DNA of 64,000 bases from an uncultured Nitrososphaerales archaeon (GCA_963706445.1 OY970160.1:768001-832000); one strand, 5' to 3'; counted from the first letter of the stretch, positions 1,901-42,523 are shown. The notes: generated by a model from the letters alone, not told the origin. Program-made: numbers and translations.

Positions 1901-1940
1901 TGGGGTGCCTACGTGAACTGAGAAAGCCCCGCCAGGAAGC
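1901..1940 (+). repeat. 40-bp dispersed att-like site, copy A
   Basis: TGGGGTGCCTACGTGAACTGAGAAAGCCCCGCCAGGAAGC aligns without gaps to copies at 7574, 10937, 12377, 19449, 20594(-) and 42484. Confidence 0.8.
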
Positions 1941-2291
1941 GAGCATTATGGAGTCACTGGACACTATCAGAAACACACGCCCAATTTTCCTCTTGCCCTA
2001 CGCCCTGTCGTGCTGCGCACCTAAGACAATAGTTCGCGGGCCGTGCTCCATCGGCCTCAGAACTCATCTTATTTGCTCCTCGCGACGGAGTCCCTTCGGA
2101 AGGAGCTATTGGAGGCCCAAGTGATTTCAGTGCGGTCCGGAAAGAAATGAGCGTGTCTTGCCAAATCATGGATAAGTAATTACGATTATTAGCTAGCGCC
2201 GGTGAAATCTGCCTTTTCCCGTCCGAGCGCCCCCAGGATTCACCAATCATCAGCTCGCACCATTACCTCAGTACACCAAAACAACGGCATA

Positions 2292-2519
2292 AAGACAATC
2301 TTGCTGTCACAAATGATCAGAGCCAAGCGAGCGGGGACCTGGTTCGGCCTAGGAAAGGTGCAGAGGAGCCTCTACAGCCTCGCCATGAGGCTGGACGTGA
2401 AGCTGCAGAGCCCCGAGCTCCTGAAGGCTCTCGTATCAGTGCTCAGGAGCCTGAGGGACAGGTTCGTCGTCGGCCACGCTCAGACCATATTCCTGGTGTT
2501 CGGTTTCAGGCGCAGGTAG
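2292..2519 (+). pseudogene. Truncated remnant of an archaeal hypothetical gene
   Basis: Protein-like segment RAKRAGTWFGLGKVQRSLYSLAMRLDVKLQSPELLKALVSVL with coding-like codon usage but no convincing start. Confidence 0.4.
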
Positions 2520-2628
2520 CATCGGGAAGGGGAGCCGAGAATGGCAGTGGATTTCCCGTTGTGAGAGAGATCGAAACCTTCGAAGTCATTAGCTCAAAGA
2601 TGCGATTTCCCCTTCACAACCGACCTGC

Positions 2629-4014
2629 CTAGGTCGACTTGCAACTACACACACCCATGACATGGGCTTTCCATTGTCTCTTTGCGCTGTCTTCGCTTAT
2701 CCTGTTCTCCAGGCTTATTTCTCTGAAGGACTTCCCCTTCGGTTCCTCAGCTGAACCGTTGACGCCCATATGTTCGGCAACAATGACACGATGCATTTGT
2801 TCATCAATGGCTGGGGCCCGTCCACCGTATTTCCTAGCTTCGTCTCTCCTCCGAACCATTGCAATGGCAGTTTTCTTCTCGTCGAAGGAAACTCTGATAC
2901 CTAGCCTTTCGATGATCGAGGTGCCTCTCTTGATGTGCCATGGGGGCAATAGGAACCACCCGATAGCGAATTGTCCTCTTTCTCCAACCATGTTGAACAA
3001 ATGAGACGGGAGCTGCCTCATGAGCTCCGGAGTCTCGTATTTCATCGTCCAGTTAAGATTGTCAGGGATTTCCATCTGGCCCATTGTCTTCATGAAGAGA
3101 AAAGTTGTTAGTTCGCGGACGTCCTTTGAAACACCCACACTCCGTTGAGAATCAGTGATGACGGCATAGCCGCAATGAAAGAGGGTATTGTTGAAGGTGA
3201 TGAAATCTTCCGCCGAGTCTTTGGCGCCTCGAGGTCGCCCGGACTTCATTCTCCCAGCTATCCATTCTTGGGCTTCCCGAATGAGGATCACGTGAGTGCG
3301 GTTCCAACTGTCCCTCTTTGAGAAACACTCCGTCAGTTTTTCGAGAGCTGCGTAGTAAAGTTCCTCATTGGCGAAGAAACTCTTAGTCATGATGAAAATC
3401 CGCCCGTCTGGGGCTGTCTTCGGTTCCAGGTCTTCAATGCTCATCGTGTGATAATTGCAATCGAGAGTGGTTTCTGCCCCGCGAACCAGAATTACGCGGT
3501 CAGAATAGGGGGAATCGAGCCAAGCGAGCGACTCGTTGTCATTGGCAGCATACAGGTCGTAGACCGAAGACCCATTCTGCAAGTATTTGATGGCGATCGT
3601 CTCCCCAAGTCCAGATTTCCCAGATCGGCGGACCCCGATAATCCGAAAAGTTGCGACGTCCTTGAAGTCGGGCAGGTAAGGTGACCCCACGAATGATTTC
3701 AGTATCTGAATGGGAAACTGAATGTCTGGGGTCCAAGGTTTGAATGGAGTCCAAGATTCGACGGGACCTCGCACCGCTTCCGTTATCACACCCTCGGACT
3801 CGCAATTGCTGCACCCTTCGTCTGGCCAGAATCGTCTGTCATGGCGCTTACATACTCTGCTGTACATACGTCGGTAGGGCATTTCGACGCGATGGCGGGC
3901 CTTCGGATCTCTCACACCGACGTTCACAAGTTGCGAAATCGTCTTCTTGTCAGGCACGTATGCGTAGTCCTTCTCTCTTCTCGTCAGTGCCCTTGGGTCG
4001 TTAGGCAAGTCCAT
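2629..4014 (-). CDS. FtsK/HerA-superfamily (packaging/Zot-like) P-loop ATPase with N-terminal Cys/His cluster and C-terminal HTH-like segment
   Basis: Walker A GVRRSGKS, variant Walker B VILIREA, downstream GYAVITDSQ...DVRE sensor/Arg pattern. CKRH...CSNC near the N-terminus; KSFREISLENRISEDSAKRQW near the C-terminus. Confidence 0.65.
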   Translation of the reverse strand: MDLPNDPRALTRREKDYAYVPDKKTISQLVNVGVRDPKARHRVEMPYRRMYSRVCKRHDRRFWPDEGCSNCESEGVITEAVRGPVESWTPFKPWTPDIQFPIQILKSFVGSPYLPDFKDVATFRIIGVRRSGKSGLGETIAIKYLQNGSSVYDLYAANDNESLAWLDSPYSDRVILVRGAETTLDCNYHTMSIEDLEPKTAPDGRIFIMTKSFFANEELYYAALEKLTECFSKRDSWNRTHVILIREAQEWIAGRMKSGRPRGAKDSAEDFITFNNTLFHCGYAVITDSQRSVGVSKDVRELTTFLFMKTMGQMEIPDNLNWTMKYETPELMRQLPSHLFNMVGERGQFAIGWFLLPPWHIKRGTSIIERLGIRVSFDEKKTAIAMVRRRDEARKYGGRAPAIDEQMHRVIVAEHMGVNGSAEEPKGKSFREISLENRISEDSAKRQWKAHVMGVCSCKST

Positions 4015-4323
4015 GCCCCATTATTCGGAGAGGTTACATAAAAACACTATGATTTTCATAAAGTCATCAGCGATTAGCGATAATTTAGCACTTAACGCTA
4101 ATGGAAATCAAATATCTAGTATATTCGGTTCGACAGCAATATGAACGAATGGGGTGTAACTCACATACTAGTAGTACGGGCACCCCTCTATACGCACGAC
4201 GACTGGCGAAACTAGGTCCTTTGCATCACGTTCAGTTTTTCTTGTTGCGGTATCGCGTTCGATCAGAATGGTACGAAGAAGGCTGACAGGAGAGAACACT
4301 ATTCTCCGGGCCTGATTCGCTAT

Positions 4324-4440
4324 TCATTTCTTCTCGTGGCGTCGCATATGTTCAGTCACCATGCTGTCCAACTGCTTCTGGTACATACTGAAGAATGGCC
4401 GACCGCAAACCGGACACGAAGCAGAAAGGACCTTTGGCAT
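4324..4440 (-). CDS. 38-aa C2H2-type zinc-finger mini-protein
   Basis: Manual translation MPKVLSASCPVCGRPFFSMYQKQLDSMVTEHMRRHEKK (CxxC...HxxxH). Below the ORF track cutoff. Confidence 0.65.
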   Translation of the reverse strand: MPKVLSASCPVCGRPFFSMYQKQLDSMVTEHMRRHEKK

Positions 4441-4546
4441 TGGTGGCACCTTTATGGGCAACGATACCCATGACGGTATCCCCTCCTAATAAGCATGTCT
4501 TTGGGTAGTGTTTTTATACCCCCATATGGATATGGGTAGGGATAGC

Positions 4547-4867
4547 ATGTCAGAAAGCGACGAACCTAATTTCACTGTCGTCAGCATCAGTTATGCGGGG
4601 GATGGTGACCGGTACATGCTAGAGTTGTTCGACTCCAAGGTAATCGACGCGGCCAAGAAGGGGAGGAAGAGCAGGCGAGAACTCTGGGACATCCGGGAGC
4701 ACAATCTAGAACGCGAAGGAATGTTCCCGTTCATCCTCTCGACCCAGAGGGTGTTCCTCCCAGTCACTAACGGGGAGTTCATGAGGCTAGCCCCGTTCGT
4801 TGGCATGAGGGTGAGGATCGCCATCTCTGTTGTGGGGTCCCAATCGAGAACCCTGATTGCTGATTAG
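4547..4867 (+). CDS. Hypothetical protein (small beta-rich archaeal type)
   Basis: ATG about 35 nt after TTTTTATA; beta-strand pattern ending PFVGMRVRIAISV. Confidence 0.55.
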   Translation: MSESDEPNFTVVSISYAGDGDRYMLELFDSKVIDAAKKGRKSRRELWDIREHNLEREGMFPFILSTQRVFLPVTNGEFMRLAPFVGMRVRIAISVVGSQSRTLIAD

Positions 4868-5090
4868 CAAACTTAGAGAAACCGTATGTGTGTGCTTACA
4901 TTCGCCCAGAGGAAATTCTTCTCTCCTCCGCCGCTTGATTCCGGGTCTGCGATTTTGGTCAGGTGAAACCATCCCATCAGTCTGGGGCCTGGCCACTCTT
5001 TTGCCAATGAGAGCTCGTCCCTCGTCACATGCACATTGTGCTAAAGGCGTTATCATGAAGGCAGGTCCCCCTCCAAGAAGCAGCCGTCGC

Positions 5091-5118
5091 CGTCCGTAAT
5101 TCTTTAATATTACGGACG
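5091..5118. promoter_or_regulatory. Perfect 10-bp inverted repeat around the TATA box of the TA operon (likely autoregulatory operator)
   Basis: CGTCCGTAAT-tctttaat-ATTACGGACG, ending 14 nt before the antitoxin ATG. Confidence 0.7.
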
Positions 5119-5131
5119 TTATCGCTCACCA

Positions 5132-5365
5132 ATGGAGAAAACCGAGGTGCAGCGGAGATTCACAACCACTATCCCCAAAAAGGTAAGAGAGAAGCTTGGG
5201 TTGAAGGAGGGGACTGGCCTATTCTGGGAAGTTGAGGAGGGTCGGATGGTCGTCTATCCCGCCACCTACTCCTCACTCGACGGCGTCCTGGAGGGGAAGG
5301 TCGAATACACGCGCAGAGTGAAGGAACAAGTCGAGGAAAGATTCCTTGGGCTTGAGAAGGGTTGA
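5132..5365 (+). CDS. vapB: AbrB/MazE/SpoVT-family antitoxin
   Basis: TTTIPKKVREKLGLKEG...WEVEEGRMVV AbrB signature; overlaps the PIN gene. Confidence 0.85.
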   Translation: MEKTEVQRRFTTTIPKKVREKLGLKEGTGLFWEVEEGRMVVYPATYSSLDGVLEGKVEYTRRVKEQVEERFLGLEKG

Positions 5366-5799
5366 GGCCCCTTCCTGAAGCCATCATCCTAGACCTCGCG
5401 GCGATCCTTGCTTTCGTCTTTGAAGACGACGACCTTCACCCCAATGCGAAGAGGATGATGAATGAAATAGAGAGGAAGAAGGCCTCTGTCTATGTCAGCG
5501 AGGCTACACCGTATGAGGCGGAGGCGCTTTTCCTGTCGGGGAGAACAAGCGTGCCGCAGCGGTCATGGACCTCATTCGTTTCAAGGCTCTGGCAGGACCC
5601 GCTGTTCCCAAGGCTCCCGACCACCGCACGCGTGTTTGCCGAGCACCTTCGCTACTATAGAGGAAACGGCGGCAGGCTTACCTACTTCGACTCCTTCCAT
5701 GCGGCGACTTCGAGGGTGTCTGGCATTCCCCTGATCACCCCTGACGGAGAGCTCCTCTCTGAGAAATCCATCGGCACGATTGATCTGGCAGAGATGTAA
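5362..5799 (+). CDS. vapC: PIN-domain (VapC) toxin
   Basis: IILD at the N-terminus, conserved E, LTYFDSFHAA and LITPD PIN motifs. Confidence 0.85.
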   Translation: MRPLPEAIILDLAAILAFVFEDDDLHPNAKRMMNEIERKKASVYVSEATPYEAEALFLSGRTSVPQRSWTSFVSRLWQDPLFPRLPTTARVFAEHLRYYRGNGGRLTYFDSFHAATSRVSGIPLITPDGELLSEKSIGTIDLAEM

Positions 5800-6137
5800 A
5801 GTCATCAACTCGCCGTCAGCAGTTCTATCTTCGTGATTATCCTCTCCAACTTCTCCCCCGGTTCGGCTAGGACGTCAGCATGGCCTTCAGCTTTGCTAGG
5901 TAGTCGCCGATGTCGGCCCTTCTTGCCTCTTCTTCGTCCCACGAATTCCCGATTCCAAAAGCCGACTTTCTAACCCGGTCCCGCTTTTCTCATCATGGTT
6001 TCTTTATGGGTCCGGCTATCGTAGTATCGCCCTGAGGAACGATTGGCTGCCCACGAACCACTCCGTCTGCGTACAGCTGTAGGCTTGCCCAGGTTATATA
6101 GTCAAAAGGCGCACTTTGCGCTCAGAGTTACCGGACC

Positions 6138-6360
6138 ATGGATACGGTTCAGCGACACCGTCCGCAGCGGCTCGTGCCCAGGAATAAGCAAAGAGGGAAG
6201 ACAAGGGTAGCAGGAAACAGGCCTCGGTGAAGCGGAGGTTGCGAGGGTCTGCTTCCATCCGGCCATCGTGGATCTGGTGTGTTCTACATGTGGCACCGAG
6301 TTCAACGATGTGGCACTTGCAGAAGTCCTCGAAGGCTGGGAAATCAGAGTCTCAAGCTGA
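6138..6360 (+). pseudogene. Frameshifted copy of a small Zn-ribbon gene (paralog of 25094)
   Basis: About 280 bp including the TTATATA promoter is near-identical to 25024-25301. An extra C (aggcctcggtga vs aggctcggtgaa) causes an early stop; the corrected frame ends WEIRVSS*. Confidence 0.7.
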
Positions 6361-6667
6361 AATCCGGAATCAGGGCGTGGCGCTCGAAGATTCAGTCCAG
6401 AGCTACCTTGGAGCCGGACCTGCTCAGCGATTTCCTGACCGTGCTTTCCGCATTCGTGCTGTATCGCTCTGTAATGACGCTTTCCCGATGAGCCACATCG
6501 AGAAGGAGATTCGCCCCAGCAAGGCAAGTCAAAGCGCCGTTCCCTAGCCGGCTCATCCTGAGCTGTCTGTGCGGTGGGGCGCCCATACAGACTACCCAAT
6601 CGTGCAAAGTTGAGCTTAGGATAACATGGTACCAAAATTGAAATAACACACTGGCTGATTCAAAGTC

Positions 6668-7504
6668 ATGAACCTGACCCTCGAAAACGTGTCAGACAGG
6701 GTGACGGTCTTCACCGGTCGCCATCCGACGGAAGGAGTTGGTGTTACGTCCACGGTCGTATCATCGGGAAAAGACGCGTTTGTGTTCGACACTCTGATGT
6801 ACCCAGACGACACTCGGAACCTGCTCCTGAGCGTGAAGTCCATGGGGTTGGTCCCGGTGGGCCTGATAAACACACATTGGCACTGGGACCATACAGCGGG
6901 GAACCAGATGTTCTTTGAGACAAGGAGAATAATCTCACACAGTCTCTCTCCTGACTTGATGCGCAAAATGACCTGGGACGATTTCAACAAAGACCTTGAA
7001 GAGGGAGACAAGATCAGGACCGTGTATCCCAACGAGACGATCAAAGACAAGTCGGTCCTGACACTAGGTGATTTGGAAGTCGAGTTTCTCCACACTCCGG
7101 GGCATACACCTGATTCTATCGTCGCACACCTGAAGAATGAACGCGTCATCGTAGCAGGTGACACAGTGATGGAGCTGCCATACCTGTGGTTCGGGGACAG
7201 CCTGACGCTGATCGATTCGCTCCGGAGTCTTAAATCAGCCTCAGCCGGGAAGGTAATAGTTCAAGGGCATGGGGGACTGTGCAGCACGGAGAAGCTCGAC
7301 TCAGACATCCGCTACATTGAGAGTACAAGGAAGATGGTAGCGGAATGCATCAGCTCCGGGAAGACGCCCAAGGAGGTAGCGCAGCTGATTCCGCTTTCGG
7401 AATGTCTTCCGAGTGAGAGGCTTGAGAGGATGCCGGAGGCTTACGGAGAATTTCATTCTGGAAACTTGGAGAAGCTCTGTGGGGAGATTACGCAGTCTGG
7501 TTGA
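6668..7504 (+). CDS. MBL-fold metallo-hydrolase
   Basis: THWHWDHTAGN, HTPGHTPD, AGD and GHG metal-binding motifs. Confidence 0.9.
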   Translation: MNLTLENVSDRVTVFTGRHPTEGVGVTSTVVSSGKDAFVFDTLMYPDDTRNLLLSVKSMGLVPVGLINTHWHWDHTAGNQMFFETRRIISHSLSPDLMRKMTWDDFNKDLEEGDKIRTVYPNETIKDKSVLTLGDLEVEFLHTPGHTPDSIVAHLKNERVIVAGDTVMELPYLWFGDSLTLIDSLRSLKSASAGKVIVQGHGGLCSTEKLDSDIRYIESTRKMVAECISSGKTPKEVAQLIPLSECLPSERLERMPEAYGEFHSGNLEKLCGEITQSG

Positions 7505-7573
7505 CCGTTGTGCGGGGATACCGTTCCACGAGACCTTCTCAGTACGCCGCTGACGCATCATCCACGCGTCCGC

Positions 7574-7613
7574 TGGGGCGCTTACCTAGATTGACAAGTC
7601 CAGGCCAGGGTGC
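7574..7613 (+). repeat. 40-bp att-like site, copy B
   Basis: TGGGGCGCTTACCTAGATTGACAAGTCCAGGCCAGGGTGC. Confidence 0.85.
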
Positions 7614-7665
7614 CTGTCAATATTCGATGGCTCCCTGCATCTTGAACCATGTTCTAGTTCGAAGC

Positions 7666-8157
7666 CTAACGAGACCACGTTATTGAGAAGGTCGAGAAGC
7701 TAATGGCACTGGTTGCTGTCAGACAATAGACATAATCGGTCCCTGAATACAGAGTTACGGGAATACCGCTGCTCAAGGTTATCATCTTGCCCCCTGAAGT
7801 ACATTCGTGAGAAAACTTCGCCATGCCTACGCTGAGGATCCAACCGGACGGCACGCGAAAAACTGGCGTAGCCTGCGGAGAAACGCCACCTCGAGATTGT
7901 TCAGTTGTGAATGCTGAGCCTGTACCGCATCCATAGACGAGAGTTGAGGGCCGCCCCGAGAACGATGGGATGATGCTCTGACGGGGATCTAGTGTTAGAT
8001 GACTGCATCCGCTTCTCAAAGGGGGATTGGAAGAAGGCGGAGGATTTGCAACGGCATGGACAACGAACCTTCCACCGAGCAACAAGATGGCGACGAAGAG
8101 CATCACAAGTCCCGCTGAGCGCAATCGCATCATCTCAGATGTGTCCCTGAAGCCCAA
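7666..8157 (-). CDS. Secreted small beta-protein, paralog of 8207-8698
   Basis: Signal peptide; shares VYxCG, TPxFxVPSGWxL, YCL and FSITWS with its neighbour. Confidence 0.7.
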   Translation of the reverse strand: MGFRDTSEMMRLRSAGLVMLFVAILLLGGRFVVHAVANPPPSSNPPLRSGCSHLTLDPRQSIIPSFSGRPSTLVYGCGTGSAFTTEQSRGGVSPQATPVFRVPSGWILSVGMAKFSHECTSGGKMITLSSGIPVTLYSGTDYVYCLTATSAISFSTFSITWSR

Positions 8158-8206
8158 AGAAAAGCTGGGGCTCCATCGTCGTAGTTTTCAACGACTCGAT
8201 GGGGAC

Positions 8207-8698
8207 TTACTGTGACCAGGTTATGGAGAACGATGTGAAGGTGGATGCACTGAGTGACGAGAGACAGTAGTCGTAGAATGTCCCTCCGGCCAAACTGACT
8301 GGAGTTGCAGTGGTTAGTGAAATTAACCCCGTCTGGCATGGTCCGGAAGAAACTGGTGAAACACCCAGAGCCCAGCCACTTGGGACAGTAAACGTCGGTG
8401 TTACGGATACGGGGTTGTTTCCTGTTGCTGTTTGGAATGCAGCATCGGCGCCGGTGCCTGCCGTGCCACACGCATAGACAATTGATGCACCTGATCCTGC
8501 AATCCCTGGTATGACACTTTCAGAAGGCACGATGACTAGCTGATTATTGGTACAAGGTCCAGCAGTGAGGGAAGCCGTAGCGAATGTTTGACCTGGGAAG
8601 GTCTGAGTAAAGAGAGTTGCAGCATAAGCCACCATAGCACCTGAGATCATTATGCCTGCCGCGAGGAGGATAAGGGATCGTTTAGATCTTATTTTCAT
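8207..8698 (-). CDS. Secreted small beta-protein (possible fibre/pilin-like subunit)
   Basis: MKIRSKRSLILL...VAYAATLFTQT signal peptide; four Cys; paralog of the downstream gene. Confidence 0.7.
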   Translation of the reverse strand: MKIRSKRSLILLAAGIMISGAMVAYAATLFTQTFPGQTFATASLTAGPCTNNQLVIVPSESVIPGIAGSGASIVYACGTAGTGADAAFQTATGNNPVSVTPTFTVPSGWALGVSPVSSGPCQTGLISLTTATPVSLAGGTFYDYCLSSLSASTFTSFSITWSQ

Positions 8699-9085
8699 TT
8701 GATTCACCTCTCTGTTTGGTTTTGTTTCTTCATAGTATAGGCCAACTTGCAAAGACTGGAATCGAAAAATACTTGGTCATTTTTTGGCCTCGGATTCTCC
8801 CTGCTTCCACTCAAATGTCTTAATTCTAGGAGAAATTGATGCCTTGGGCTCATCGCTGGACGAGAGCGCGCATGCAACCTAGTTCCAGTAGCATATTCTC
8901 AAACCATCATTGGATACTCATCGCTTTGCCAAGGCGAAATTTCTTTAGCCTCCTCTAGAGACATTCCGATCTATTTCGCCTTAATCCTTCGCCATTCAAT
9001 CCGGATAAGCACGAAGGGGTTTTGAATACTCCAGCAGGTCTATTAGACGCGCCCCAGTCCAGAGCTGTTCCAAGGAAGCTCTTTC

Positions 9086-10906
9086 ATGGGAGAAAAGGGT
9101 AGCAAAGACTCGTCCTTAGGCCAGCGGGGCACCAACGGTCCCGACGAGGGCAAGCTCTCGCAACCCCTCAAATTCACTTCATCGCGAACAAAGCAACTCT
9201 TCGACTACTTGGTAGAATCATTTGTCGAGGACTACATGCGCAAGAAGTACGCCCAGGAGAGATCCGGATGGCGGAGTCTTGTTGACGCGGCCCGGAAGAT
9301 CGGGCTGCCTACCTCTGCGATGTACGGGAAGGGTGGCGGGCAGAGCCCTTTTGTCAGCGAGCTGATTCGACGAGGTATTGTCGAGCTGCGCGTATTTCCC
9401 GGTGAGCGCGGGCGCGGCGGGGGAATATCGAGGCTCAGAATCGCCTACGAAAAGAAACCCGTCCAGGGCTTGGTTGACAGGCTCGTCTGGGGCGACCTGC
9501 GAGGTGAGGAGCAAGTGCAACACTTGAACAGGCTGAAAGTGGCGGTGCTGCCGTTCACCAATATGAGCCCTGACCCTCGAGACGGATACTTCGCGGACGG
9601 GATGACAGAGGAGCTGATCTCAGCGGTCTCCAAGGTACGAGGGTTGAGCGTGATCTCACGAATCTCTGTCATGCACTACAAGGACCAGTCGATAGGGGCC
9701 CGGGAGATCGGTAGAGAACTGAAGACCGGCACGCTGCTCGAAGGCAGCGTCAGGAAGGCAGGCGATCGGGTCCGGGTCGCTGTCCAAATGATCAACGCCG
9801 AAACCGACGAGCATCTCTGGGCAGAGAACTACGACAGGACACTGGAGGACGTCTTCTCCATTCAAAGTGACATAGCCCAGAACGTAGCATCCATGCTCAA
9901 GGTCACCCTCCTTAATAGCGACCGGGAGAGGCTCGAGAAGGCCCCGACAAAAGACCCGGAAGCCCACGCCCTGTACCTGAAGGGGAGATCCCTTGGGATA
10001 CGTGGAACCGAGGCAGATCTGAAGAAAGCGGCCAAGTTCTATCGGAAGGCTATCCTGAAGGATCCCAAGTATGCCCTCGCGTACGCTTGGCTCTCCGATG
10101 CCACGTCTACATTGGGATTCTACGAGATGACGCCGCCCGTGAAGTCGTTCAAGAGAGCCGAAGAACTTGCCCGACGAGCGCTCGAAATAGACCCATCGCT
10201 CCCCGAAGCTCACATGTCATTGGGTGAAGTCCTTTTCAATCAATGGGATTTCAAAGGCTCAGAGGAAGAATTGAACCGTGCCTTGGAGCTGGACCCAAAC
10301 TCCGCGACGGTCCTGAGCGACAAAGCGAATCTAATGCTCTTCAGGGGGCGTCTCGACGAAGCCGCGACGCTCGCAAGGAGGGCGCTGGAACTTGACCCCC
10401 TATCACCGTCCATCCTCAATAATGCTGCAACAATTCTCCTCTATTCTGGCAAACTGGACGACGCCATAACCCTCTTCAAGAAGGTTCTCGAAATTGATCC
10501 CGAAGCGGCCTCTGCGCTGTGCAACCTCGGCGTGGCGTACGTCCAGAAGGGGATGTTAGACGAAGGCATAGATTCAATTCGTGATGCGATAAGGATGTCA
10601 AAGGGCTCCAGCCCGGGTCAGTGGAGCGACCTGGGACACGCGCTGAGCAAAGCTGGCAGGTTCGCAGAACTCAGGGAGCTTCTGATCGAAACCCTCGAAT
10701 GGCACGCGAAGAACCATCGTGGCGCCATCGCGCTCGTGTCACTCTACGCAAACCTTGGCGACAAGGACAAGGCCTTCGAGTGGCTGGAGAAGGCCATCGA
10801 AGAGCATTCAGGCTATCTCAATGGGATCCTTGCCGACTTCGCCTTCGAGGACCTCCGTTCGGACCCCCGGATGGAAGCAATCATAGCCCGTCTGGGCTTA
10901 AGATGA
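9086..10906 (+). CDS. Putative wHTH + TolB-like + TPR-repeat signalling protein
   Basis: VAVLPFTNMSPDP..YFADGMTEELI module shared with the cyclase at 25752; multiple TPRs (ALELDP); N-terminal helix/wing-like region. Confidence 0.75.
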   Translation: MGEKGSKDSSLGQRGTNGPDEGKLSQPLKFTSSRTKQLFDYLVESFVEDYMRKKYAQERSGWRSLVDAARKIGLPTSAMYGKGGGQSPFVSELIRRGIVELRVFPGERGRGGGISRLRIAYEKKPVQGLVDRLVWGDLRGEEQVQHLNRLKVAVLPFTNMSPDPRDGYFADGMTEELISAVSKVRGLSVISRISVMHYKDQSIGAREIGRELKTGTLLEGSVRKAGDRVRVAVQMINAETDEHLWAENYDRTLEDVFSIQSDIAQNVASMLKVTLLNSDRERLEKAPTKDPEAHALYLKGRSLGIRGTEADLKKAAKFYRKAILKDPKYALAYAWLSDATSTLGFYEMTPPVKSFKRAEELARRALEIDPSLPEAHMSLGEVLFNQWDFKGSEEELNRALELDPNSATVLSDKANLMLFRGRLDEAATLARRALELDPLSPSILNNAATILLYSGKLDDAITLFKKVLEIDPEAASALCNLGVAYVQKGMLDEGIDSIRDAIRMSKGSSPGQWSDLGHALSKAGRFAELRELLIETLEWHAKNHRGAIALVSLYANLGDKDKAFEWLEKAIEEHSGYLNGILADFAFEDLRSDPRMEAIIARLGLR

Positions 10907-10936
10907 AGCGCCGAATCTAGAAGTTAGCCATTATGT

Positions 10937-10976
10937 TGGGGCGCCCACGCGAACTGAGAAAACCCGGTTAGGGTAA
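10937..10976 (+). repeat. 40-bp att-like site, copy C
   Basis: TGGGGCGCCCACGCGAACTGAGAAAACCCGGTTAGGGTAA. Confidence 0.8.
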
Positions 10977-11011
10977 GGGAAATGTCATGATTAAATAGAG
11001 AAAAGGCGAGT

Positions 11012-11356
11012 ATGATGCCAGTGAAGACGACCAGGACCCTGGGAATCGTCTCGGCAGTCGTCGGCCTCGTCCTACTCTTGATTACCTTCGCCCTAGCCTA
11101 CTCCGTCTTCGCCAGCCATCAGGGCGCACTCACATCGACGGACCTTTCCACGAACTTCGCTTCGCTGTTACAGGCTGCGGTGCAGGCCCTCTTTCTGGGA
11201 ATAATGGGTTGGGCCGGCTCACTCCTCATGATCCGGGGAATCGACTTCGAGAAGGTCGAGAGGGGCGTCGGCGTCGTCACCTTCAAAGTGGACAAGGGGG
11301 TAGGGATCATGACCCAGCAGCCTGATCAAGAAGAGAACAAACCGAAGAGCTCTTGA
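11012..11356 (+). CDS. Two-TM membrane protein (first of a three-gene operon)
   Basis: Two hydrophobic helices; TTAAATA about 20 nt upstream. Confidence 0.7.
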   Translation: MMPVKTTRTLGIVSAVVGLVLLLITFALAYSVFASHQGALTSTDLSTNFASLLQAAVQALFLGIMGWAGSLLMIRGIDFEKVERGVGVVTFKVDKGVGIMTQQPDQEENKPKSS

Positions 11357-11838
11357 AGACCGAACAGTCGACCGCAGGGAGGTCTCTGAGGGGCGTATCC
11401 ATAGTCATAACTCTCCTTTCCGTGGTCATCTTCGCCACGATCGCCTATTCGGCCTACGAGGACAGCGTCGGTATCCTTGGGATCTTTGGCCAGGGTTCCA
11501 GCACGCCGGCGATCAGTGCCAAGACTGTCTACCAGGGTTCGACGGCCATGGTATCCATGAACATAACGCTGCATAACAATGGTCTCTATCCCCTCGCCTT
11601 CTCGATATCGTGCGTCCGATCCCCGGGCGCCCTGAACGCCACATGCAACAATCCCGCGACCTCGATAGCCATGAGCCAAACGGCGACCGTGCACTTCCTC
11701 ATGAATGTCACCGGGGTCGCCCCCCAGTCCGGAACGGGCGGGAGGCCCATAGATGTTGACGTGAATGTGACGCTCAATCCATTCGTCTCGCTCAAGGTCA
11801 CCACCGACCTGAGTGGGCTGGTAGGAGTTGTTCCCTAG
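11353..11838 (+). CDS. Membrane-anchored beta-sandwich (LEA/WHy-like) protein
   Basis: N-terminal TM followed by a beta-rich domain with NITLHNNGLYPL. Confidence 0.6.
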   Translation: MKTEQSTAGRSLRGVSIVITLLSVVIFATIAYSAYEDSVGILGIFGQGSSTPAISAKTVYQGSTAMVSMNITLHNNGLYPLAFSISCVRSPGALNATCNNPATSIAMSQTATVHFLMNVTGVAPQSGTGGRPIDVDVNVTLNPFVSLKVTTDLSGLVGVVP

Positions 11839-11841
11839 GCC

Positions 11842-12312
11842 TTGATGGGCGAGTACGTGAGCTGGCGAAGCAGGATTCTTGGAGCCGCCTTTGCCGCAGC
11901 ATTGAACATCTTTGTCTGGGTAGTCGTCCCCTATTTCTTGTACTCTGACCTCCTAAAGCTCGAGCCGACTGCAGTGAGCGCCGCCGGCTCTGGGATCTTC
12001 TCCCTGGACTTCATTTACACCTTCGGAGCGATCATAACGGGTCTCGAAGTGATGGGTGCCCTGACGAACGGGATGGCGGTCTCGGTCCCGCTGATCAGCG
12101 GTGGATACATTGCGTCGGCCTACTTCACCTACGCCTTGGTCAACGGGGGAACTTTCGCCCTCGAAGCGGCAGGTCTGAAATTCGCACTCTCGTTCCAACC
12201 GCTGCTTTTCCTGCTGATGCTCCCATCTCTATTTAGCGCATTCAAGGGGCCGATTTCTTTCTTGCTTGAGCGCACGGAGGCAGGGAGGGGAGCTTCTGAT
12301 CTTGCAGGTTAG
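11842..12312 (+). CDS. Four-TM membrane protein
   Basis: Four hydrophobic segments; coupled to the upstream genes. Confidence 0.7.
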   Translation: MMGEYVSWRSRILGAAFAAALNIFVWVVVPYFLYSDLLKLEPTAVSAAGSGIFSLDFIYTFGAIITGLEVMGALTNGMAVSVPLISGGYIASAYFTYALVNGGTFALEAAGLKFALSFQPLLFLLMLPSLFSAFKGPISFLLERTEAGRGASDLAG

Positions 12313-12376
12313 GCTACTGCAAGAGTCTGGAATTGCCACTTAGGCCTAGGCCTGCTTGACAATGCGCCCGAGGGAT

Positions 12377-12514
12377 TCGGGCTCCTACCTAGAATGTCTA
12401 GGCCCGGCCAGGGCGCACAACAGGGCGGTCTTCTCGGCTCCGACAATGGCTTGTTTCAGCCTAAGATCAACGGAGTAACCATCACGATCAACGGATCTGC
12501 TACCTAAACTGCAA
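12377..12514 (+). repeat. 40-bp att-like site, copy D, plus 98-bp extension shared with copy E
   Basis: TCGGGCTCCTACCTAGAATGTCTAGGCCCGGCCAGGGCGC; 12417-12514 matches 19489-19586 without gaps (about 9 mismatches by eye). Confidence 0.9.
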
Positions 12515-12565
12515 TCACATAGCTCGAATAACCATTTATCAGCCATCAATTTCCCCGAAGATGAC

Positions 12566-12973
12566 GTGGGCTCAACCCTACTCCTTCAGCCCATGATGTA
12601 CTTCGTTCCTTTCCGACTAGCCGCTCCCCAACGGGGATCAGAAGGAGACTCAGGTCAGACACCGATTCCAGCCGTTCTTGATCCTTCGTTCAAACGCATA
12701 ATGGTCTACGTCTTCGTTGCTAGCCGAGGGGGACAAAACAGGGCACGAATCGCGGAGATGCTTCGAGGAGAGCCGTCGAACCTCAACAGGATCTCAGAGG
12801 GCCTCAAGCTCGACTACAAGACGGTCCGTCATCACATCGGGGTTCTAGAGGAGAACGGAGTCATCATCTCGAATGCAAAGGGGGCTTACGGTGCGGTTTA
12901 TTTCCTGACCCCTTATTTTGAAAAATACTTCGAAATCGTCAAGGAAATGTGGGTTCGATTTGGGCATAGTTAG
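12566..12973 (+). CDS. Winged-helix (ArsR-like) transcriptional regulator
   Basis: SRGGQNRARI...NLNRISEGLKLDYKTVRHHIGVLEENGVI...YGAVYF. The true start may be further downstream. Confidence 0.85.
   Translation: MGSTLLLQPMMYFVPFRLAAPQRGSEGDSGQTPIPAVLDPSFKRIMVYVFVASRGGQNRARIAEMLRGEPSNLNRISEGLKLDYKTVRHHIGVLEENGVIISNAKGAYGAVYFLTPYFEKYFEIVKEMWVRFGHS
12945..12968 (+). promoter_or_regulatory. Tandem operator motif 1
   Basis: AATGTGGGTTCGATTTGGGCATA, ending 33 nt before ATG 13001 and followed by a TATA-like TTAGATAT. Confidence 0.7.
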
Positions 12974-13000
12974 ATATAGCTTGAGAGGGTCGAATAGCTG

Positions 13001-13312
13001 ATGGCGTTCGACATCTTCTGGATGAACGTCGCTGCAGGTTTCGCGTTCGTCAACATCGCCTTCGTGGCTTTGTTGATAGGCCTCTACTTCAGGAGCTGGC
13101 AGAAGGTGCGTTCCTCGCTGAGCCTCGCACTGATTCTCTTCGCTGTATTCTTCCTGGTTCAGAATGGGGTAATCGTAGTCTTCTGGTACGTCCTCTACGG
13201 TCTTGGCCCTCCCTTCCAGTCGGTCGTGGTTTCAGCGGCCCCCTACCTTGCTGCAATCAACGCCCTTGAGACGCTTGCGCTCGCGAACCTAGTTAGGATC
13301 ACTTGGAGCTAG
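13001..13312 (+). CDS. Three-TM membrane protein, probable partner of the wHTH regulator
   Basis: Three hydrophobic helices, FFLVQN and NALE motifs; directly follows the regulator. Confidence 0.7.
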   Translation: MAFDIFWMNVAAGFAFVNIAFVALLIGLYFRSWQKVRSSLSLALILFAVFFLVQNGVIVVFWYVLYGLGPPFQSVVVSAAPYLAAINALETLALANLVRITWS

Positions 13313-13363
13313 TCCAAGCCAGGCTGGCCATGCCCCAGCCCGGTTCGGCAGATCCCGTCAACC

Positions 13364-13387
13364 CGATTTGGGTCGGATTTGGGCATA
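13364..13387 (+). promoter_or_regulatory. Tandem operator motif 2
   Basis: CGATTTGGGTCGGATTTGGGCATA, ending 33 nt before ATG 13420. Confidence 0.75.
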
Positions 13388-13419
13388 CCGCTAATTAGTC
13401 TGAACCAAGAATAATACCG

Positions 13420-13599
13420 ATGACCGGATATTCAGCCGACCTGAAGCAAGTATGTGGCTGTGCCTGGGCAGCTACCGGTGCCACTTCGGACGAAGTGACA
13501 AACAAAGTGGCGTCGCATGCGATGCAGGCTCACGGGATGGATGAGGTCCCAGCCGAAGTAGCCCAGAAGCTTCAGGCAGCCATGAGACCGACGATGTAA
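13420..13599 (+). CDS. DUF1059-like small metal-binding protein (59 aa)
   Basis: Manual translation MTGYSADLKQVCGCAWAATGATSDEVTNKVASHAMQAHGMDEVPAEVAQKLQAAMRPTM (C..T..E...HA...HG pattern). Missed by the ORF track. Confidence 0.75.
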   Translation: MTGYSADLKQVCGCAWAATGATSDEVTNKVASHAMQAHGMDEVPAEVAQKLQAAMRPTM

Positions 13600-13781
13600 G
13601 AACTCACTGGAGGCGCAAGCCTCCTCTTTCTTTTTCTGATCAGACGATCTTGCAATCCATCAAAAGGAAGCTTTGTCGAAGGAGAACAAGCCGTAGGTGA
13701 TTTTAGGCGAATTGGAGGGCACCCTTGAAGACAACAGCTGCGCCGAAACAAGAAGGTCGAGGCAGAGGGCGATTCATTTGC

Positions 13782-13805
13782 CGATTTGGGCATAATTCTG
13801 GCATA
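13782..13805 (+). promoter_or_regulatory. Tandem operator motif 3
   Basis: CGATTTGGGCATAATTCTGGCATA, ending 35 nt before ATG 13840. Confidence 0.75.
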
Positions 13806-13839
13806 GCCTTTTCTACTTTTTGCACTCGATGCTCTTCCG

Positions 13840-14163
13840 ATGAATGACATAACAGATGAAAGTCGGCGCAAGTTTCTGAAGGTTGTGGCGCTTGGAGGGG
13901 TAGCTGTCGCTGCAACACCGCTCTTGATGAATGCCAAGATCCTGGGGTTGGGGTCAGCTTCCGTAAGCCCCGCTTTGGGGACAGGAACGGCATACGCACC
14001 TGTTTCAACTAAAACGGGTGGCGCCGGAGGGGACGATTCCACTTTGGTAGTCGTAGTGAAGAACGGCCAGGTCACAGGCTACAGGGGTGCGCAGAAGGTC
14101 GCCATGAATGACCTTGCGCTCGGATCCCAACTTCACACCTCCTTCGAGTCATACCTGGAGTGA
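13840..14163 (+). CDS. Small protein with twin-arginine (Tat) signal peptide
   Basis: SRRKFLK followed by a hydrophobic h-region. Confidence 0.8.
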   Translation: MNDITDESRRKFLKVVALGGVAVAATPLLMNAKILGLGSASVSPALGTGTAYAPVSTKTGGAGGDDSTLVVVVKNGQVTGYRGAQKVAMNDLALGSQLHTSFESYLE

Positions 14164-15627
14164 TTGGAAATGACATCCCACAGAGAGGCGCCGTCGATCT
14201 CTAAGGACCCGGTTGCGGACAATACAGATCTGTATGCGTTCGTCAGTCCCGACAAGCCGAACACAGTGACAATCCTGGCCAACTACATACCGCTTGAAGA
14301 GCCAGCTGGAGGCCCGAATTTCAATTCGTTCGGGGACGACGTACTCTACGAGATCAAGATCGACAATGACGCCGACGCCAAACCAGACATCACCTATCAG
14401 TTCACATTCAGGACTACGGTCGCAAACAAGAACACCTTCCTTTACAACACCGGTCCAATAGCAACGCTCGATTCGCCGAACTGGAACGTCCGTCAGTTCT
14501 ACAAGGTGACCGAAGTCAAGGGAGATGGCATCGCAAAGGTGCTTGGTGACAACCTTCCCTGCCCGCCGGTCAACATAGGTCCCCGGTCAACGCCCAGCTA
14601 TGCGAGCTTGGCCGACGCCGCGATCAAGGCCCTTTCCGACGGATCTTCGGTGTTCGCCGGCGCACGCGCGGACGGGTTCTACGTAGACCTTGGGTCGATC
14701 TTTGACCTGGGGACACTAAGGCCGCTCGAGTCCTACCACCTGATTCCAGTCCCGCCGAACGCTGCGGGGGTGAACGGACTTAAGGGATACAACTGCCACA
14801 GTATCGCTCTTCAGGTGCCCATCTCCAAACTGACGTCGGACGGTTCGGTACCAACCGACCCTAGCAAGCAAGAGGCTGTCCTTGGTTTCTGGGCTACAGC
14901 TAGTCGGCGAGCGGTCAGGGTTCCAGACGGAGCCTCTTCGAGCCAGGCATTCGAAGAAGCGGGGCCCTTCGTTCAGGTGTCCAGACTCGGAAACCCTCTG
15001 ATCAACGAGGTCGTAATTCCGGTCGGTACGAAGGACCAGTGGAACACTGTACAACCCTCGATGGACTCGGCCTTCGCCCCCTACTATCTAGTCCCCGAGC
15101 TCTCCAAGCTTCTGCCGGTACTGTACCCGGGCGTCTTCCCCAATCTGGCCGGCCTCTCAGGCTCAGCCGCCCCCAGAAACGACCTCGCAGCCATTCTTCT
15201 GACGGGTATCCCGAGCGGGATAATCACCGGGTTCCAGAACTTCACTGGTGCGACTCAGGCAGACATGCTCAGGCTGAACGTCGCCATCCCTCCAAACACA
15301 ACCGCGGGGGCCAACCCGCCTTTCAACAGCTCGAGCAGGCAGGGGATCCTTGGCGGAGACCTGGCGGGCTATCCCAACGGCCGACGGGTGTTCGACAACG
15401 TCGTGGCCATAGAGCTCCGAGCCATAGCGGGTCTCACATACCCCCTTGTCATGCCCAGCTACACCCCTGACGCGGCCGCAGGAATTTTGGCCGACACCGA
15501 CACCCCAGATCCAGGTGTCACAAAGTTCTCTGACGCCCAGAACGATGTCACCAACGCGCCATACCTGGGAAGCTTTCCATACCTCGCGACTCCCTACCAG
15601 GGTTACGAGCATGAGCACGACCCCTAG
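14164..15627 (+). CDS. DUF4331-family protein without its own signal peptide
   Basis: Hallmark TSHREAP..DP.ADNTDLYAF, QVSRLGNPLINE, DMLRLN, GYPNGRR..D; His-rich C-terminus YEHEHDP. Confidence 0.85.
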   Translation: MEMTSHREAPSISKDPVADNTDLYAFVSPDKPNTVTILANYIPLEEPAGGPNFNSFGDDVLYEIKIDNDADAKPDITYQFTFRTTVANKNTFLYNTGPIATLDSPNWNVRQFYKVTEVKGDGIAKVLGDNLPCPPVNIGPRSTPSYASLADAAIKALSDGSSVFAGARADGFYVDLGSIFDLGTLRPLESYHLIPVPPNAAGVNGLKGYNCHSIALQVPISKLTSDGSVPTDPSKQEAVLGFWATASRRAVRVPDGASSSQAFEEAGPFVQVSRLGNPLINEVVIPVGTKDQWNTVQPSMDSAFAPYYLVPELSKLLPVLYPGVFPNLAGLSGSAAPRNDLAAILLTGIPSGIITGFQNFTGATQADMLRLNVAIPPNTTAGANPPFNSSSRQGILGGDLAGYPNGRRVFDNVVAIELRAIAGLTYPLVMPSYTPDAAAGILADTDTPDPGVTKFSDAQNDVTNAPYLGSFPYLATPYQGYEHEHDP

Positions 15628-15657
15628 GCCGGTTCCGGACTTCGTAGGTTTCCATCC

Positions 15658-16695: not shown

Positions 16696-16717
16696 AGATC
16701 CGTTTTCGCCGATGGCC

Positions 16718-17140
16718 CTAGCTGTTCGCGTGAAATATTCCTGAGCTTACTTCCTCGGTGACCTTGAGCCCTCCAGGTGGCACATTGAAGGGGCAGATGA
16801 TCCCCCGGCTGTATTTGACCGCTCCCTCGACCTCGATGACTGGGAACTCATCCTCGGTTGCCCGGGCGGCATGGGACCGGACTTCCTGTTCCGTCTGACA
16901 CAGCCTATCCAAGTTCTTGAGCAGGTCCTCCCCTTTTTCCGTGTAAATCCGACGTATCTTGGCCTCTCCCTCAAGCTGTTTTGACACCTCAGAATCGTAC
17001 AGAAAGACCCTGTCTCCCTCTTCGATCAGATCCCAATCGTCGCTCTTCTCCCCTACGTAAAGAACCCTATGATGAACGATGTTGTGCACCGCTTCGCGGC
17101 CCATGGGAATTATTATCCCTGTCACTCCGTTTTTCCCCAT
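16718..17140 (-). CDS. DUF365/PUA-ASCH-like protein
   Basis: GDRVFLYDS...LEGEAKI pattern of PUA-like folds. Confidence 0.55.
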   Translation of the reverse strand: MGKNGVTGIIIPMGREAVHNIVHHRVLYVGEKSDDWDLIEEGDRVFLYDSEVSKQLEGEAKIRRIYTEKGEDLLKNLDRLCQTEQEVRSHAARATEDEFPVIEVEGAVKYSRGIICPFNVPPGGLKVTEEVSSGIFHANS

Positions 17141-17198
17141 TTGTTGCTCGCCATCAATGGACGACTTTTGGCACTTTCGGAAGGGGTCCGTGAGAATT

Positions 17199-34923: not shown

Positions 34924-35390
34924 TCATACCAACCCACTTTCTGTGAGTTTTGCCACGACCCTGCTCCAGAATCCTCCGCCCGTGGTAAGCAGGCCGGCGA
35001 CGGCGCAGAGTACTATGCCCCCTGATGCTACGAGAAGAACCTATTCAGGAGTGCTTCCCGGAGGCCGAATCTCCCTTATCGGGGCGTCCTCCTCAACTGA
35101 GAAGGCCCAGCCGGGCGCCACCTCGCTGCTTCGCTTCGTAAAAGCCCCTACGTAGGCGTAGCCCCTAGCCGGGCTATCATCAACCTGGAATCCACTCTTA
35201 GAACTCGATTGGGGGTGGGCCCCATCGGACCGAACCCTCGGTCCACCGTTTTGTCTAGCGGGATTTGACTTTGGATTCGAACCTATTTGGCAATGAACCC
35301 CGGCCGGGGCACGGTTTTCACGGACAATGTCTTATGGCCGAATGTGTTTGGGAGTCGGGATGCGCCGTGCTCGATTTCAAAACGGGATGA

Positions 35391-40967: not shown

Positions 40968-41106
40968 GAACCCACGAGGGTCCGTAGCATGTACTTCTGA
41001 TCCAACAAGAATTGGATGGGAAATCAGGTGATCCGAATGGTGGGATTCTCTTCCTGTAGAAGGCCGTGAGAAGCTTAAGAGAAACGAATGGCAAGGCGAG
41101 GCAGGA

Positions 41107-41307
41107 TTGACCCCCAGGGAGACGGCTCGACTCGTCCTGGTCGTCGTTGGCATTCTCTTGACTGGAGGCGGAGTAGTTGGATTATTCCAGAACCCCCAGT
41201 CCAGTGTCCTCTCTTCGGGCTTCGGAATAGTCTTCGCTGGGTTGGTATTGGTCGTAGTTGCTTTCATCATGGGCCCGCCACCAAGGCAGTCGCCCGCTTT
41301 GCATTAG
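41107..41307 (+). CDS. Small two-TM protein
   Basis: Two hydrophobic helices. Confidence 0.55.
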   Translation: MTPRETARLVLVVVGILLTGGGVVGLFQNPQSSVLSSGFGIVFAGLVLVVVAFIMGPPPRQSPALH

Positions 41308-41313
41308 CCAAGG

Positions 41314-41329
41314 AATCTCGGCCAGGGCG
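41314..41329 (+). repeat. Right half of the att-like site
   Basis: AATCTCGGCCAGGGCG just after the stop of 41107-41307. Confidence 0.55.
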
Positions 41330-41478
41330 TCGCCCAATCATTGACCGAGCCCACCAACATCAAAAATGGCCGAGTGGTAGAATACTGTAGAATCCCTTTC
41401 GCAACCTTCTCCTGTCTGATTCTCATGTCTGAGAATGGCTCCCGCGTGTTAAATAGGGCAGCTCGTCAGAATTCCTTC

Positions 41479-42441
41479 TTGTCACAAGGCAGACGCGGTA
41501 TTGCCCGTACAATTTTGATCGTCGTTGTTATCGTCATCATCGCGGTCGCTGGCATAGGTGCTTACTTCGCCTTCGGATCTTCTGGCTCGAGCCCTTCGAG
41601 TTCTTCGAGCCTGACGTCGTCTACGACTTCGACATCTTCAACTTCATCATCTCCGACCACGAGTTCAACCTCTGCCACCAGCTCAACACCCACCACCACT
41701 AGCTCCACGAGCACGACTTCAACAACATCGTCAACAACACAACCAACAACATCATCCTCGAGCTCGTCCACGAGCACCTCGTCGACGTCTTGCCTGCCTA
41801 CTATCCGCTTCACGTCTCAGCCTGCGAGCGTCTTCGTACCACAGCTCAGTGCCTACTCATCCATGGGTGGGAATTTCCAGCTCTCGGTGAACAAGACATC
41901 ATACACCTTCACCTCGAGCTACACAACGGTCTATGCGAGCGCGACGACGTTCAAGGTCAGCATCGTATCATCTGCTTATCCGAGTGCGTTCACGATGTGG
42001 CTTCTTAGGAACGGGACCCTTGTGGGGATAAACTATGCCGGGTACAACTACACGGGCGCAGCGGCAATTCAGTACTACCAGGGATCGCGTCTCTTCACCG
42101 CGTGGGGGACAATGCTTGTGTTCGGGCAGCAGCTTACGACCAACTACATCTATGATACTGCATACTTCCATTCCACCGGGACGTCGCCTGTGACGATCGG
42201 AGCGAACACGTTCACTCTGACCAACTACGCCGCAAACTCGCTTCCTGAGACCGTTCAGTCCTGCGGGGGTGCAAGCGTTACCCTCAGCACAGCAAGCATG
42301 TCCATAGGGACGCCGAACGGAGCGAACTATCCGTTCCCATTCGACGTGGACATTATGGCCTCGACCACAGGGGGCCCATCGGGAGCAGGGACGACGACCT
42401 TCACCATCACCTCCCAGATAACCTCGGTCACAGTGGCCTGA
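41479..42441 (+). CDS. Surface protein with class III (prepilin-like) signal peptide and long S/T linker
   Basis: RRG|IARTILIVVVIVII after TTAAATA; about 65-aa S/T tract; beta-rich domain. Confidence 0.72.
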   Translation: MSQGRRGIARTILIVVVIVIIAVAGIGAYFAFGSSGSSPSSSSSLTSSTTSTSSTSSSPTTSSTSATSSTPTTTSSTSTTSTTSSTTQPTTSSSSSSTSTSSTSCLPTIRFTSQPASVFVPQLSAYSSMGGNFQLSVNKTSYTFTSSYTTVYASATTFKVSIVSSAYPSAFTMWLLRNGTLVGINYAGYNYTGAAAIQYYQGSRLFTAWGTMLVFGQQLTTNYIYDTAYFHSTGTSPVTIGANTFTLTNYAANSLPETVQSCGGASVTLSTASMSIGTPNGANYPFPFDVDIMASTTGGPSGAGTTTFTITSQITSVTVA

Positions 42442-42483
42442 GGGACACCCGACAGTATGTGACGTCTTCAATGATGCCAACGG

Positions 42484-42523
42484 TTGCGCGCCTACACAGG
42501 GTAACGAGACTCGGCCAGGGAGT
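42484..42523 (+). repeat. 40-bp att-like site, copy I (degenerate)
   Basis: TTGCGCGCCTACACAGGGTAACGAGACTCGGCCAGGGAGT, same length and spacing as the consensus. Confidence 0.7.

Follow-up and report, generated by a model that had tools for sequence, protein, structure and literature searches.

The repeat and the modules of the island

The window analysed here is a stretch of 64,000 nt (genome positions 768,001 to 832,000) from an uncultured Nitrososphaerales archaeon whose genome (G000) comprises 1,817,757 bp, and it carries the larger part of an array in which mostly co-oriented copies of a short repeat bound small gene modules. This repeat is probably an attachment (att) junction of attR/attP type, formed by integrative elements of one family, which use a tyrosine integrase directed at the gene for tRNA-Asp(GUC), with arrays having been built by successive insertions; its right 20 nt would be the crossover core and its left 24 nt the element-side arm (P). 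For comparison, we used 55 genomes of the genus, a group of Nitrososphaerales / group I.1c-like metagenome-assembled genomes (MAGs) from peat and acid subsoil (G-numbers denote genomes, L-numbers individual DNA stretches or contigs). A profile built from seven copies was scanned over the complete G000 genome, with a sequence-only covariance model as second scan. The sites and the modules between them are as follows (window coordinates, strand, content):

1897..1943, +, att-type site copy A, composed of element arm and tRNA-Asp core (covariance model 36.8 bits, E 3e-9; profile)
1944..7571, module A-B with a 461-aa protein without Pfam match, a MazE/PIN toxin-antitoxin pair and a metallo-beta-lactamase-fold gene (gene calls, Pfam)
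7572..7618, +, att-type site copy B (41.1 bits)
7619..10932, module B-C with a gene of 163 aa (-) and a TPR protein of 606 aa (+) (gene calls)
10933..10975, +, att-type site copy C (33.7 bits)
10976..12374, +, module C-D, an operon of three genes (114, 161 and 155 aa) (gene calls)
12375..12420, +, att-type site copy D (39.1 bits)
12421..17571, module D-G with HTH, DUF8036, DUF1059, Tat-signal protein, DUF4331, NicO permease, a 140-aa gene and TatA (gene calls, Pfam)
17572..17618, +, att-type site copy G, degenerate (30.5 bits)
17625..17638, -, inverted copy of the left block only, GTAGGCGCCCCAAC (read from the sequence)
17850..19427, module G-E with a protein of 372-508 aa (-) without Pfam match and a 93-aa open reading frame (ORF) (+) (gene calls, Pfam)
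19447..19493, +, att-type site copy E (42.4 bits)
19567..20523, -, NosD/beta-helix gene (Pfam)
20591..20635, -, att-type site copy F, the sole minus-strand copy (36.5 bits)
35078..35123, +, att-type site copy absent from the initial annotation of this DNA (30.9 bits)
42482..42527, +, att-type site copy I, the right end of the array (28.7 bits)

The profile scan of G000 yielded 12 significant copies (E-values of 1e-5 to 1e-10, with one at 0.02), 11 on the plus and 1 on the minus strand, and the covariance model returned the same 12. All of them lie within genome positions 747,789 to 810,527, i.e., in a single island of ca. 63 kb without any genome-wide dispersal. Nothing comparable was found elsewhere in G000, where all other profile matches have E-values above 1 and the weak match at 1,258,900 is the tRNA-Asp gene itself. 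The initial annotation had described near-full copies of a 40-mer at 1901, 7574, 10937, 12377, 17572, 19449 and 42484 (+) and at 20594 (-), every one of which was recovered by the profile. While the repeat is real, near-full identity did not hold up: the 40-mer as originally given is not matched anywhere in the window even when 3 mismatches are allowed and is therefore a consensus, and the window copies are recognizable but diverged, with pairwise identities of 60% to 80%. That list was also incomplete, lacking a window copy at 35077 (+) and three further copies beyond the left window edge, 7,962, 18,005 and 20,211 bases away (L002 10038; L001 11995 and 9789). The inverted half-site reported at 17625 is real, being the reverse complement of the left block, and the half-site reported at 41314 reaches no threshold.

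All 12 copies are intergenic and mostly co-oriented, as had been claimed. The seven copies from 1901 to 20594 sit between genes that were called independently on metagenome contigs, and those at 35077 and 42484, together with the three left of the window, sit between ORFs. Copy A is found between a phosphoesterase gene (-) and a 68-aa gene (+), copy B begins 68 nt past the stop codon of the Lactamase_B gene, and copy C begins 27 nt past the TPR stop codon, with 36 nt from its end to the next start codon. Further to the right, the copy at 35078 begins 155 nt past an ArsR-type HTH gene (34582-34923) and copy I begins 41 nt past a 366-aa gene, a unit of gene and site that recurs in G065. Altogether, the G000 array has 12 sites and 11 modules of 1.1 to 14.5 kb each, none of which contains a recombinase Pfam match. 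Its GC content of 55.6% compares to 58.1% for the genome and falls at the 7th percentile among windows of the same size.

A tRNA-Asp end and its junction with an integrase

Across the genus, where we evaluated 110 to 116 distinct copies from 11 genomes, conservation is sharply limited to 43 nt composed of tGTTGGGGCGCCTAC, a variable stretch of 10 nt and AAGTCCCGGCCAGGGCGCC, and the information content of the flanks is close to 0 (116 copies). The left 24 nt consist of GTTGGGGCGCCTAC followed by the variable 10 nt, and the right 20 nt (AAAGTCCCGGCCAGGGCGCC) are the 3' exon of tRNA-Asp(GUC). The first clue to this identity was a match in G043 to block 2 only, located upstream of an integrase at the end of a tRNA-like gene starting with GCCCTGG. 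The last 20 to 21 nt of this tRNA gene (G000 1,258,881-1,258,992, minus strand, corresponding to L211 8881-8992; G006, L019 10726-10838, minus strand; G043, L209 10593-10715, minus strand) agree at 100% identity with block 2 in many of the motif copies. This bears out the earlier proposals that the site is of att type and that insertions share one target, which the present comparison identifies as the 3' end of the tRNA-Asp(GUC) gene, the last 20 nt of which form the right half of the site.

The intact tRNA-Asp gene is missed by both ARAGORN and the Rfam tRNA model, but ARAGORN calls a tRNA-Asp(GTC) in G000, G067 and G006 once a T-loop insert of 13 to 14 nt has been removed; in G000, the gene carries a 21-nt intron in the anticodon loop as well. 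It is single-copy in 43 of the 55 genomes of the genus, and no second tRNA-Asp was found in G000. We found no conserved neighbors of tRNA-Asp across species that would define the B' side. The G043 copy (L209 10593-10715) has a poor anticodon stem and is called "SeC (tca)" after removal of the T-loop insert, suggesting that this copy, which adjoins the integrase, may be a damaged one. The T-loop insert directly precedes the att core, which starts at its 3' edge; this arrangement is relevant to a proposal, cited in PMC8371274, according to which introns reach tRNA genes together with integrating elements.

What lies on the two sides of the core distinguishes four kinds of loci:

G067:C1 and G043: left, tRNA-Asp body; right, conserved arm of ca. 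53 nt and integrase ATG (attL)
G067:C3: left, full motif; right, the same arm and integrase (attP-like junction)
G010:C9: left, full motif; right, arm and 13 nt of integrase, then unrelated DNA (remnant)
G000: left, tRNA-Asp body; right, unrelated DNA with a DEAD-box helicase (empty attB)

In an alignment of these ends (A3), TCCCGGCCAGGGCGCCT is invariant and common to tRNA ends and motif copies. The arm and integrase behind the motif of G067:C3 are 88% identical over 1.35 kb to the version on the tRNA side, with homology ending inside the core. Since arm and integrase thus follow both the tRNA core and the full motif in relatives, we read the motif as an attR/attP-type junction of P arm and core. 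The integrase of G043 (L209 9448-10545, minus strand) is a tyrosine integrase (PF00589, 34.9 bits at a cut-off of 27.1), and the only two motif copies of this genome lie 1-3 kb from it; at this type locus, tRNA-Asp, integrase, motif, a cyclase-TPR gene and another motif follow each other on one strand. The locus in G006 comprises tRNA-Asp, a 576-aa gene and the motif, so that an intact tRNA stands at the array end in G043 and G006 but not in G000. Among peat metagenome contigs, L219 carries tRNA, arm and integrase, and on L217 the arm and the start of the integrase come after three to four motif copies of the same orientation.

The three tyrosine recombinases of G000 all lie beside other tRNAs, and their family's species distribution does not track the motif; this genome has no serine recombinase, and its TnpB is a single fragment far from the array. 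One region of G000 (1,522,372-1,566,826) represents a classical tandem pair of integrated elements in which a tRNA has an adjacent 386-aa tyrosine integrase and the last 28 nt of this tRNA are repeated 35.5 and 44.4 kb downstream with 2-3 mismatches. More distant integrases are found behind tRNA-Asp in the motif-negative genomes G012, G054 and G001.

The motif is present in 21 of the 55 species at 1-32 copies, with 32 in G065, and its copies in relatives form numerous small clusters of like orientation instead of occupying one region. Sampling of 16 further genera of the order gave no copy in 15 of them and a single match in the remaining one (G040). A search of IMG/VR returned no real match (of 18 pattern matches, one passes the model, inside a gene of a phage with 70% GC), and a loose pattern scan over genome contigs gave mostly chance matches in high-GC bacteria. 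Neighboring copies at most 10 kb apart are co-oriented at a ratio of 48:7, with a median spacing of 2.2 kb (110 distinct copies). Pairs of copies are ca. 74% identical irrespective of whether they are adjacent, from the same genome or from different genomes, as if each copy had been drawn independently from a single conserved template rather than arising by local duplication. No single fixed crossover point emerged from half-sites, whose breakpoints are scattered over positions 12-15, 20-28 and 34-37. In one array (L003 18818-18893, i.e., G004:C1:206,818-206,893), two site copies stand head-to-head and share a palindromic center, GGCGCC, and the orientation of the array flips exactly there.

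The motif is neither coding nor a structured RNA, because none of 75 copies has an ORF of at least 100 aa ending inside it, no 3-nt periodicity is seen, the stop codon is not conserved, RNAalifold predicts no pairs for the consensus, and the only plausible helix (9 bp) shows no covariation (2 double changes, below shuffled controls). An Rfam search of the window returned nothing. We had also considered that the motif might be a coding relic preserving the last codons of a gene (W-G-A-Y-L-N-stop) and rejected this idea because the frames upstream are not related to one another and stay open for no more than ca. 104 codons.

Modules between the sites

Module content differs between relatives with breaks at the site, as expected from the initial annotation. 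Boxed stretches of 0.45-1.25 kb hold one gene each, with unrelated genes in either orientation. G063 and G064 share, at 94% identity, a DoxX cassette that is boxed by two sites; it is the only homology of two loci with unrelated flanks, and the bare DoxX gene occurs in yet other contexts in five further genomes. Similarly, an ada-alkA module at another tRNA hot spot begins exactly at the motif in G016, G014 and G065. In G068 and G063, this position lacks the module or holds a replacement, and G063 and G064 carry it at a different place. For the arrays G010:C2 and G065:C18, the best relatives of the modules are dispersed over other contigs. Among alignments between relatives, none spans a site with both flanks, and DNA synteny of the G000 island with relatives is limited to gene fragments at 65-80% identity, this genome being without a close relative.

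Several further observations concern these modules. A DoxX-like gene with its promoter (490 bp; L198 5761-6254, L200 and L201-L205) is the only DNA common to the loci of seven genomes (79-94% identity), among them G011, which has no motif copies, and G019, which has almost none; single-gene shuffling in these archaea may therefore not rely solely on this site. At the tRNA hot spot of the ada-alkA module (L027 8314-8560, L035, L187, L018 and L181), there is a repeated att unit of ca. 117 nt in which the final 22 nt of the tRNA are followed by a spacer of 75 nt and a second T-arm/acceptor end resembling that of a tRNA (..GGTTCGAATCCCACCGGGCCCGC), and the motif often lies 10-25 nt past this unit. 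Two integrase-less elements of ca. 2.6-2.9 kb, one of them with ada-alkA, vary by species at this hot spot.

The two largest families of site-adjacent genes at the sampled loci are adenylate/guanylate cyclase-TPR proteins with 31 members and NHL/Big_3_5 surface proteins with 32 (window 9086-10906 and 25752-27686; L002 6606-8675; many in relatives). The 606-aa TPR protein of module B-C is a paralogue of the cyclase-TPR family, and in G010:C2 cyclase-TPR paralogues stand in tandem with a site between them. In the window, a 136-nt duplication with 88% identity (12379-12514 and 19451-19586) comprises the att site and ca. 96 nt to its right; by eye, this right part resembles the promoter/5' region before site-adjacent cyclase-TPR genes of relatives and may be a relic of such a gene. 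The three-gene operon of module C-D is present in many genus members without flanking sites. The NosD/beta-helix gene is boxed by the inverted pair of copies E (+) and F (-), which form a 34-nt inverted repeat (I2) with 82% complementarity. Elsewhere in the window, a repeat of ca. 290 nt with 82-91% identity links positions 6082-6368, upstream of the metallo-beta-lactamase gene, to 25038-25323 at a distance of 19 kb, and at 35391-35454, ca. 270 nt past the site at 35078, a 19-nt unit (ACCTACCAGGTTGGTCCCC) is present in three perfect tandem copies.

Origin of the arrays and comparison to known systems

Site-specific insertion at a resident core would leave one more copy of P and core in direct orientation, and successive insertions would result in a co-oriented array with a site at the end of each module. 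Modules could enter either as full elements that later lose their integrase or as integrase-less circles with one site that are recombined in trans. The 63-kb region of G000 would be such an array, detached from the tRNA, devoid of an integrase and with decayed copies. The interpretation of the initial annotation, i.e., att sites and accretion of modules, is supported and largely right, and the mobilization of integrase-less modules in trans that it suggested is plausible on indirect grounds, namely a DoxX cassette shared by different contexts and arrays that abut integrase elements.

Several observations weigh against this interpretation, some of them in the window's own genome. A recombinase at the array edge, as the initial annotation had envisaged, is found in G043, G067 and a peat metagenome contig, where a tyrosine integrase is joined via the conserved arm, but none lies inside or beside the G000 array. 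The tRNA-Asp gene of G000 is unoccupied, with unrelated DNA and the DEAD-box helicase on its right side, and is located 450 kb from the array, which was therefore not built at the present position of this tRNA or has moved since; no tRNA lies beside the array either (none within 611-1009 kb). The G000 copies match the tRNA core at merely 12-17 of 20 nt, so the array looks old rather than like a live hotspot, and no G000 module has a relative above ca. 85% identity. With such distant relatives and decayed cores, nothing shows recent mobility in G000, and the window array is probably an old, inactive orphan. Of the long accretion hotspot that had been proposed, the clustering of copies in one island thus stands, whereas the array does not appear active and relatives have many small clusters instead. 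Beyond G000, close homologues (78%) of the cognate G043 integrase were found in only one other genome of the genus, G067, and the integrase-side arm follows the motif in just 2-3 of ca. 110 genomic copies. The cognate enzyme is thus missing from most motif-bearing genomes; the arrays would be relics, or else the integrase would be encoded on episomes not binned with the MAGs. Homology ends at most 30 nt from a site in 6.7% of cases compared to 1.2% expected, a modest enrichment, and this excess may be small once a preference for intergenic positions is allowed for. Finally, the C-D operon is boxed by sites in opposite relative orientation in G000 and G010, which a single conserved cassette does not predict.

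Regarding the way in which modules entered, each could be the stump of a complete element from which integrase and arm were later deleted, leaving cargo and attR without any mobilization in trans. Archaeal elements are documented to lose their integrase once they have integrated and to insert in tandem at a single locus (PMC8371274, PMC6563490), the copy at G010:C9 breaks off after the first 13 nt of the integrase, and G000 itself harbors a classical tandem pair with integrase at another tRNA. We nevertheless consider this history unlikely, given that ca. 110 copies end sharply at the core with nothing conserved rightward, which is not expected from random deletions, that boxed modules of 0.45-0.7 kb are too small for an integrase of ca. 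1.1 kb plus cargo, and that an integrase-less module directly adjoins the intact tRNA in G006. Because the right edge is so sharp and many modules are too small for an integrase, we infer that modules would rather have entered singly as site-bearing circles, with the integrase acting in trans.

Other explanations dispense with integration as the present role or the origin of the motif. It might now mainly be a protein-binding boundary, regulatory or terminator element under selection whose tRNA-like half is historical, as could be suggested by its two sharply conserved blocks around a variable spacer, the star-like divergence within and between genomes, the preference for 3' over 5' gene ends (108 versus 62) and the position of several copies 20-30 nt upstream of TATA-like boxes of cyclase-TPR genes. 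Sites are also oriented like the neighboring gene more often than not (108 versus 62), but neither bias is absolute and the orientation relative to genes is not fixed (3'-same 68, 3'-opposite 40, 5'-same 40, 5'-opposite 22). One gene family is boxed in both orientations, sites also occur between convergent genes, RNA structure is unsupported, and the sequence follows directly from the junction with the integrase arm, which makes a primarily regulatory role quite improbable. A miniature mobile element similar to miniature inverted-repeat transposable elements or repetitive extragenic palindromes that inserts into intergenic DNA would account for sharp edges, intergenic location, 1-32 copies per genome and patchy occurrence in the genus. 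We give this idea hardly any weight: the motif has no terminal inverted repeats and no hairpin, target-site duplications are absent (a shared flanking 6-mer in 2 of 116 copies compared to ca. 4 by chance), relatives yielded no empty site between two conserved flanks, and one half of the 43-mer consists of the end of a tRNA gene that is linked to an integrase arm.

That elements integrate in tandem at tRNA genes is textbook knowledge. For archaea, such tandem integration has been described previously, as have insertion into tRNA genes with introns and subsequent loss of the integrase (PMC6563490, PMC8371274). Like the tandem tyrosine-integrase elements at tRNA genes known from archaeal and bacterial islands, including thaumarchaeal elements (PMC6563490), the system described here has direct repeats that carry a tRNA 3' end, type loci with a tyrosine integrase adjoining the tRNA, and a single core that is reused. 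It differs from them in scale, with up to 32 sites per genome in many clusters, in the smallness of its integrase-less modules (median 2.2 kb, down to 0.45 kb), in the detachment of most arrays, including that of the window, from the tRNA, and in the one-sided conservation of its site, since the 24-nt element arm is conserved with the core and the other side is not.

Att-bounded modules without a recombination module that lie in tandem with an integrase-bearing element are shared with two bacterial systems, the cis-mobilizable elements (CIMEs) of the accretion-mobilization model and the composite staphylococcal cassette chromosome (SCC) arrays at rlmH. CIMEs, which occur next to ICESt1/ICESt3 in Streptococcus thermophilus, have att sites on both sides but no integrase of their own, and in both systems the integrase of the neighboring element would move the modules. 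The arrays of these archaea differ from both by their host, the tRNA-Asp target, far more and smaller modules and the absence of a conjugation module, and the mobilization of their modules is putative. The resemblance to integrons, which have also been reported in archaeal MAGs and are defined by a folded attC and an IntI with attI and Pc, is one of outcome: small co-oriented cassettes with one recombination site each and, at some loci, an integrase at the edge. Here, however, the site is defined by the sequence of a double-stranded 43-mer that has a tRNA core and is unlike attC, as the initial annotation had stated, with neither hairpin nor covariation. There is no IntI, attI or Pc platform; where relatives have an integrase, it is joined through the tRNA-type core, and cassettes have their own promoters and can contain several genes in either direction. 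We know of no previous description of archaeal arrays in which 12-30 tiny, integrase-less and often single-gene modules are closed by the same 43-bp site and are mostly detached from a tRNA.

As a tentative extension, group I.1c-like Thaumarchaeota may possess an integron-like gene-cassette system in which a tRNA-Asp-specific integrase on a minimal element of ca. 2 kb inserts integrase-less circles of 0.5-10 kb at any resident site. Each circle would carry one double-stranded 43-bp site composed of element arm and tRNA core, and arrays could be built and reshuffled without need of the tRNA gene; we regard this joint scenario as possible rather than probable. If modules are indeed inserted in trans, this would constitute a second, mechanistically different route to integron-like cassette arrays, and it would help to explain the shuffling of accessory genes in uncultured Thaumarchaeota of acid soils, which involves sensor cyclase-TPR proteins, surface proteins, metal transport and DNA-repair operons.

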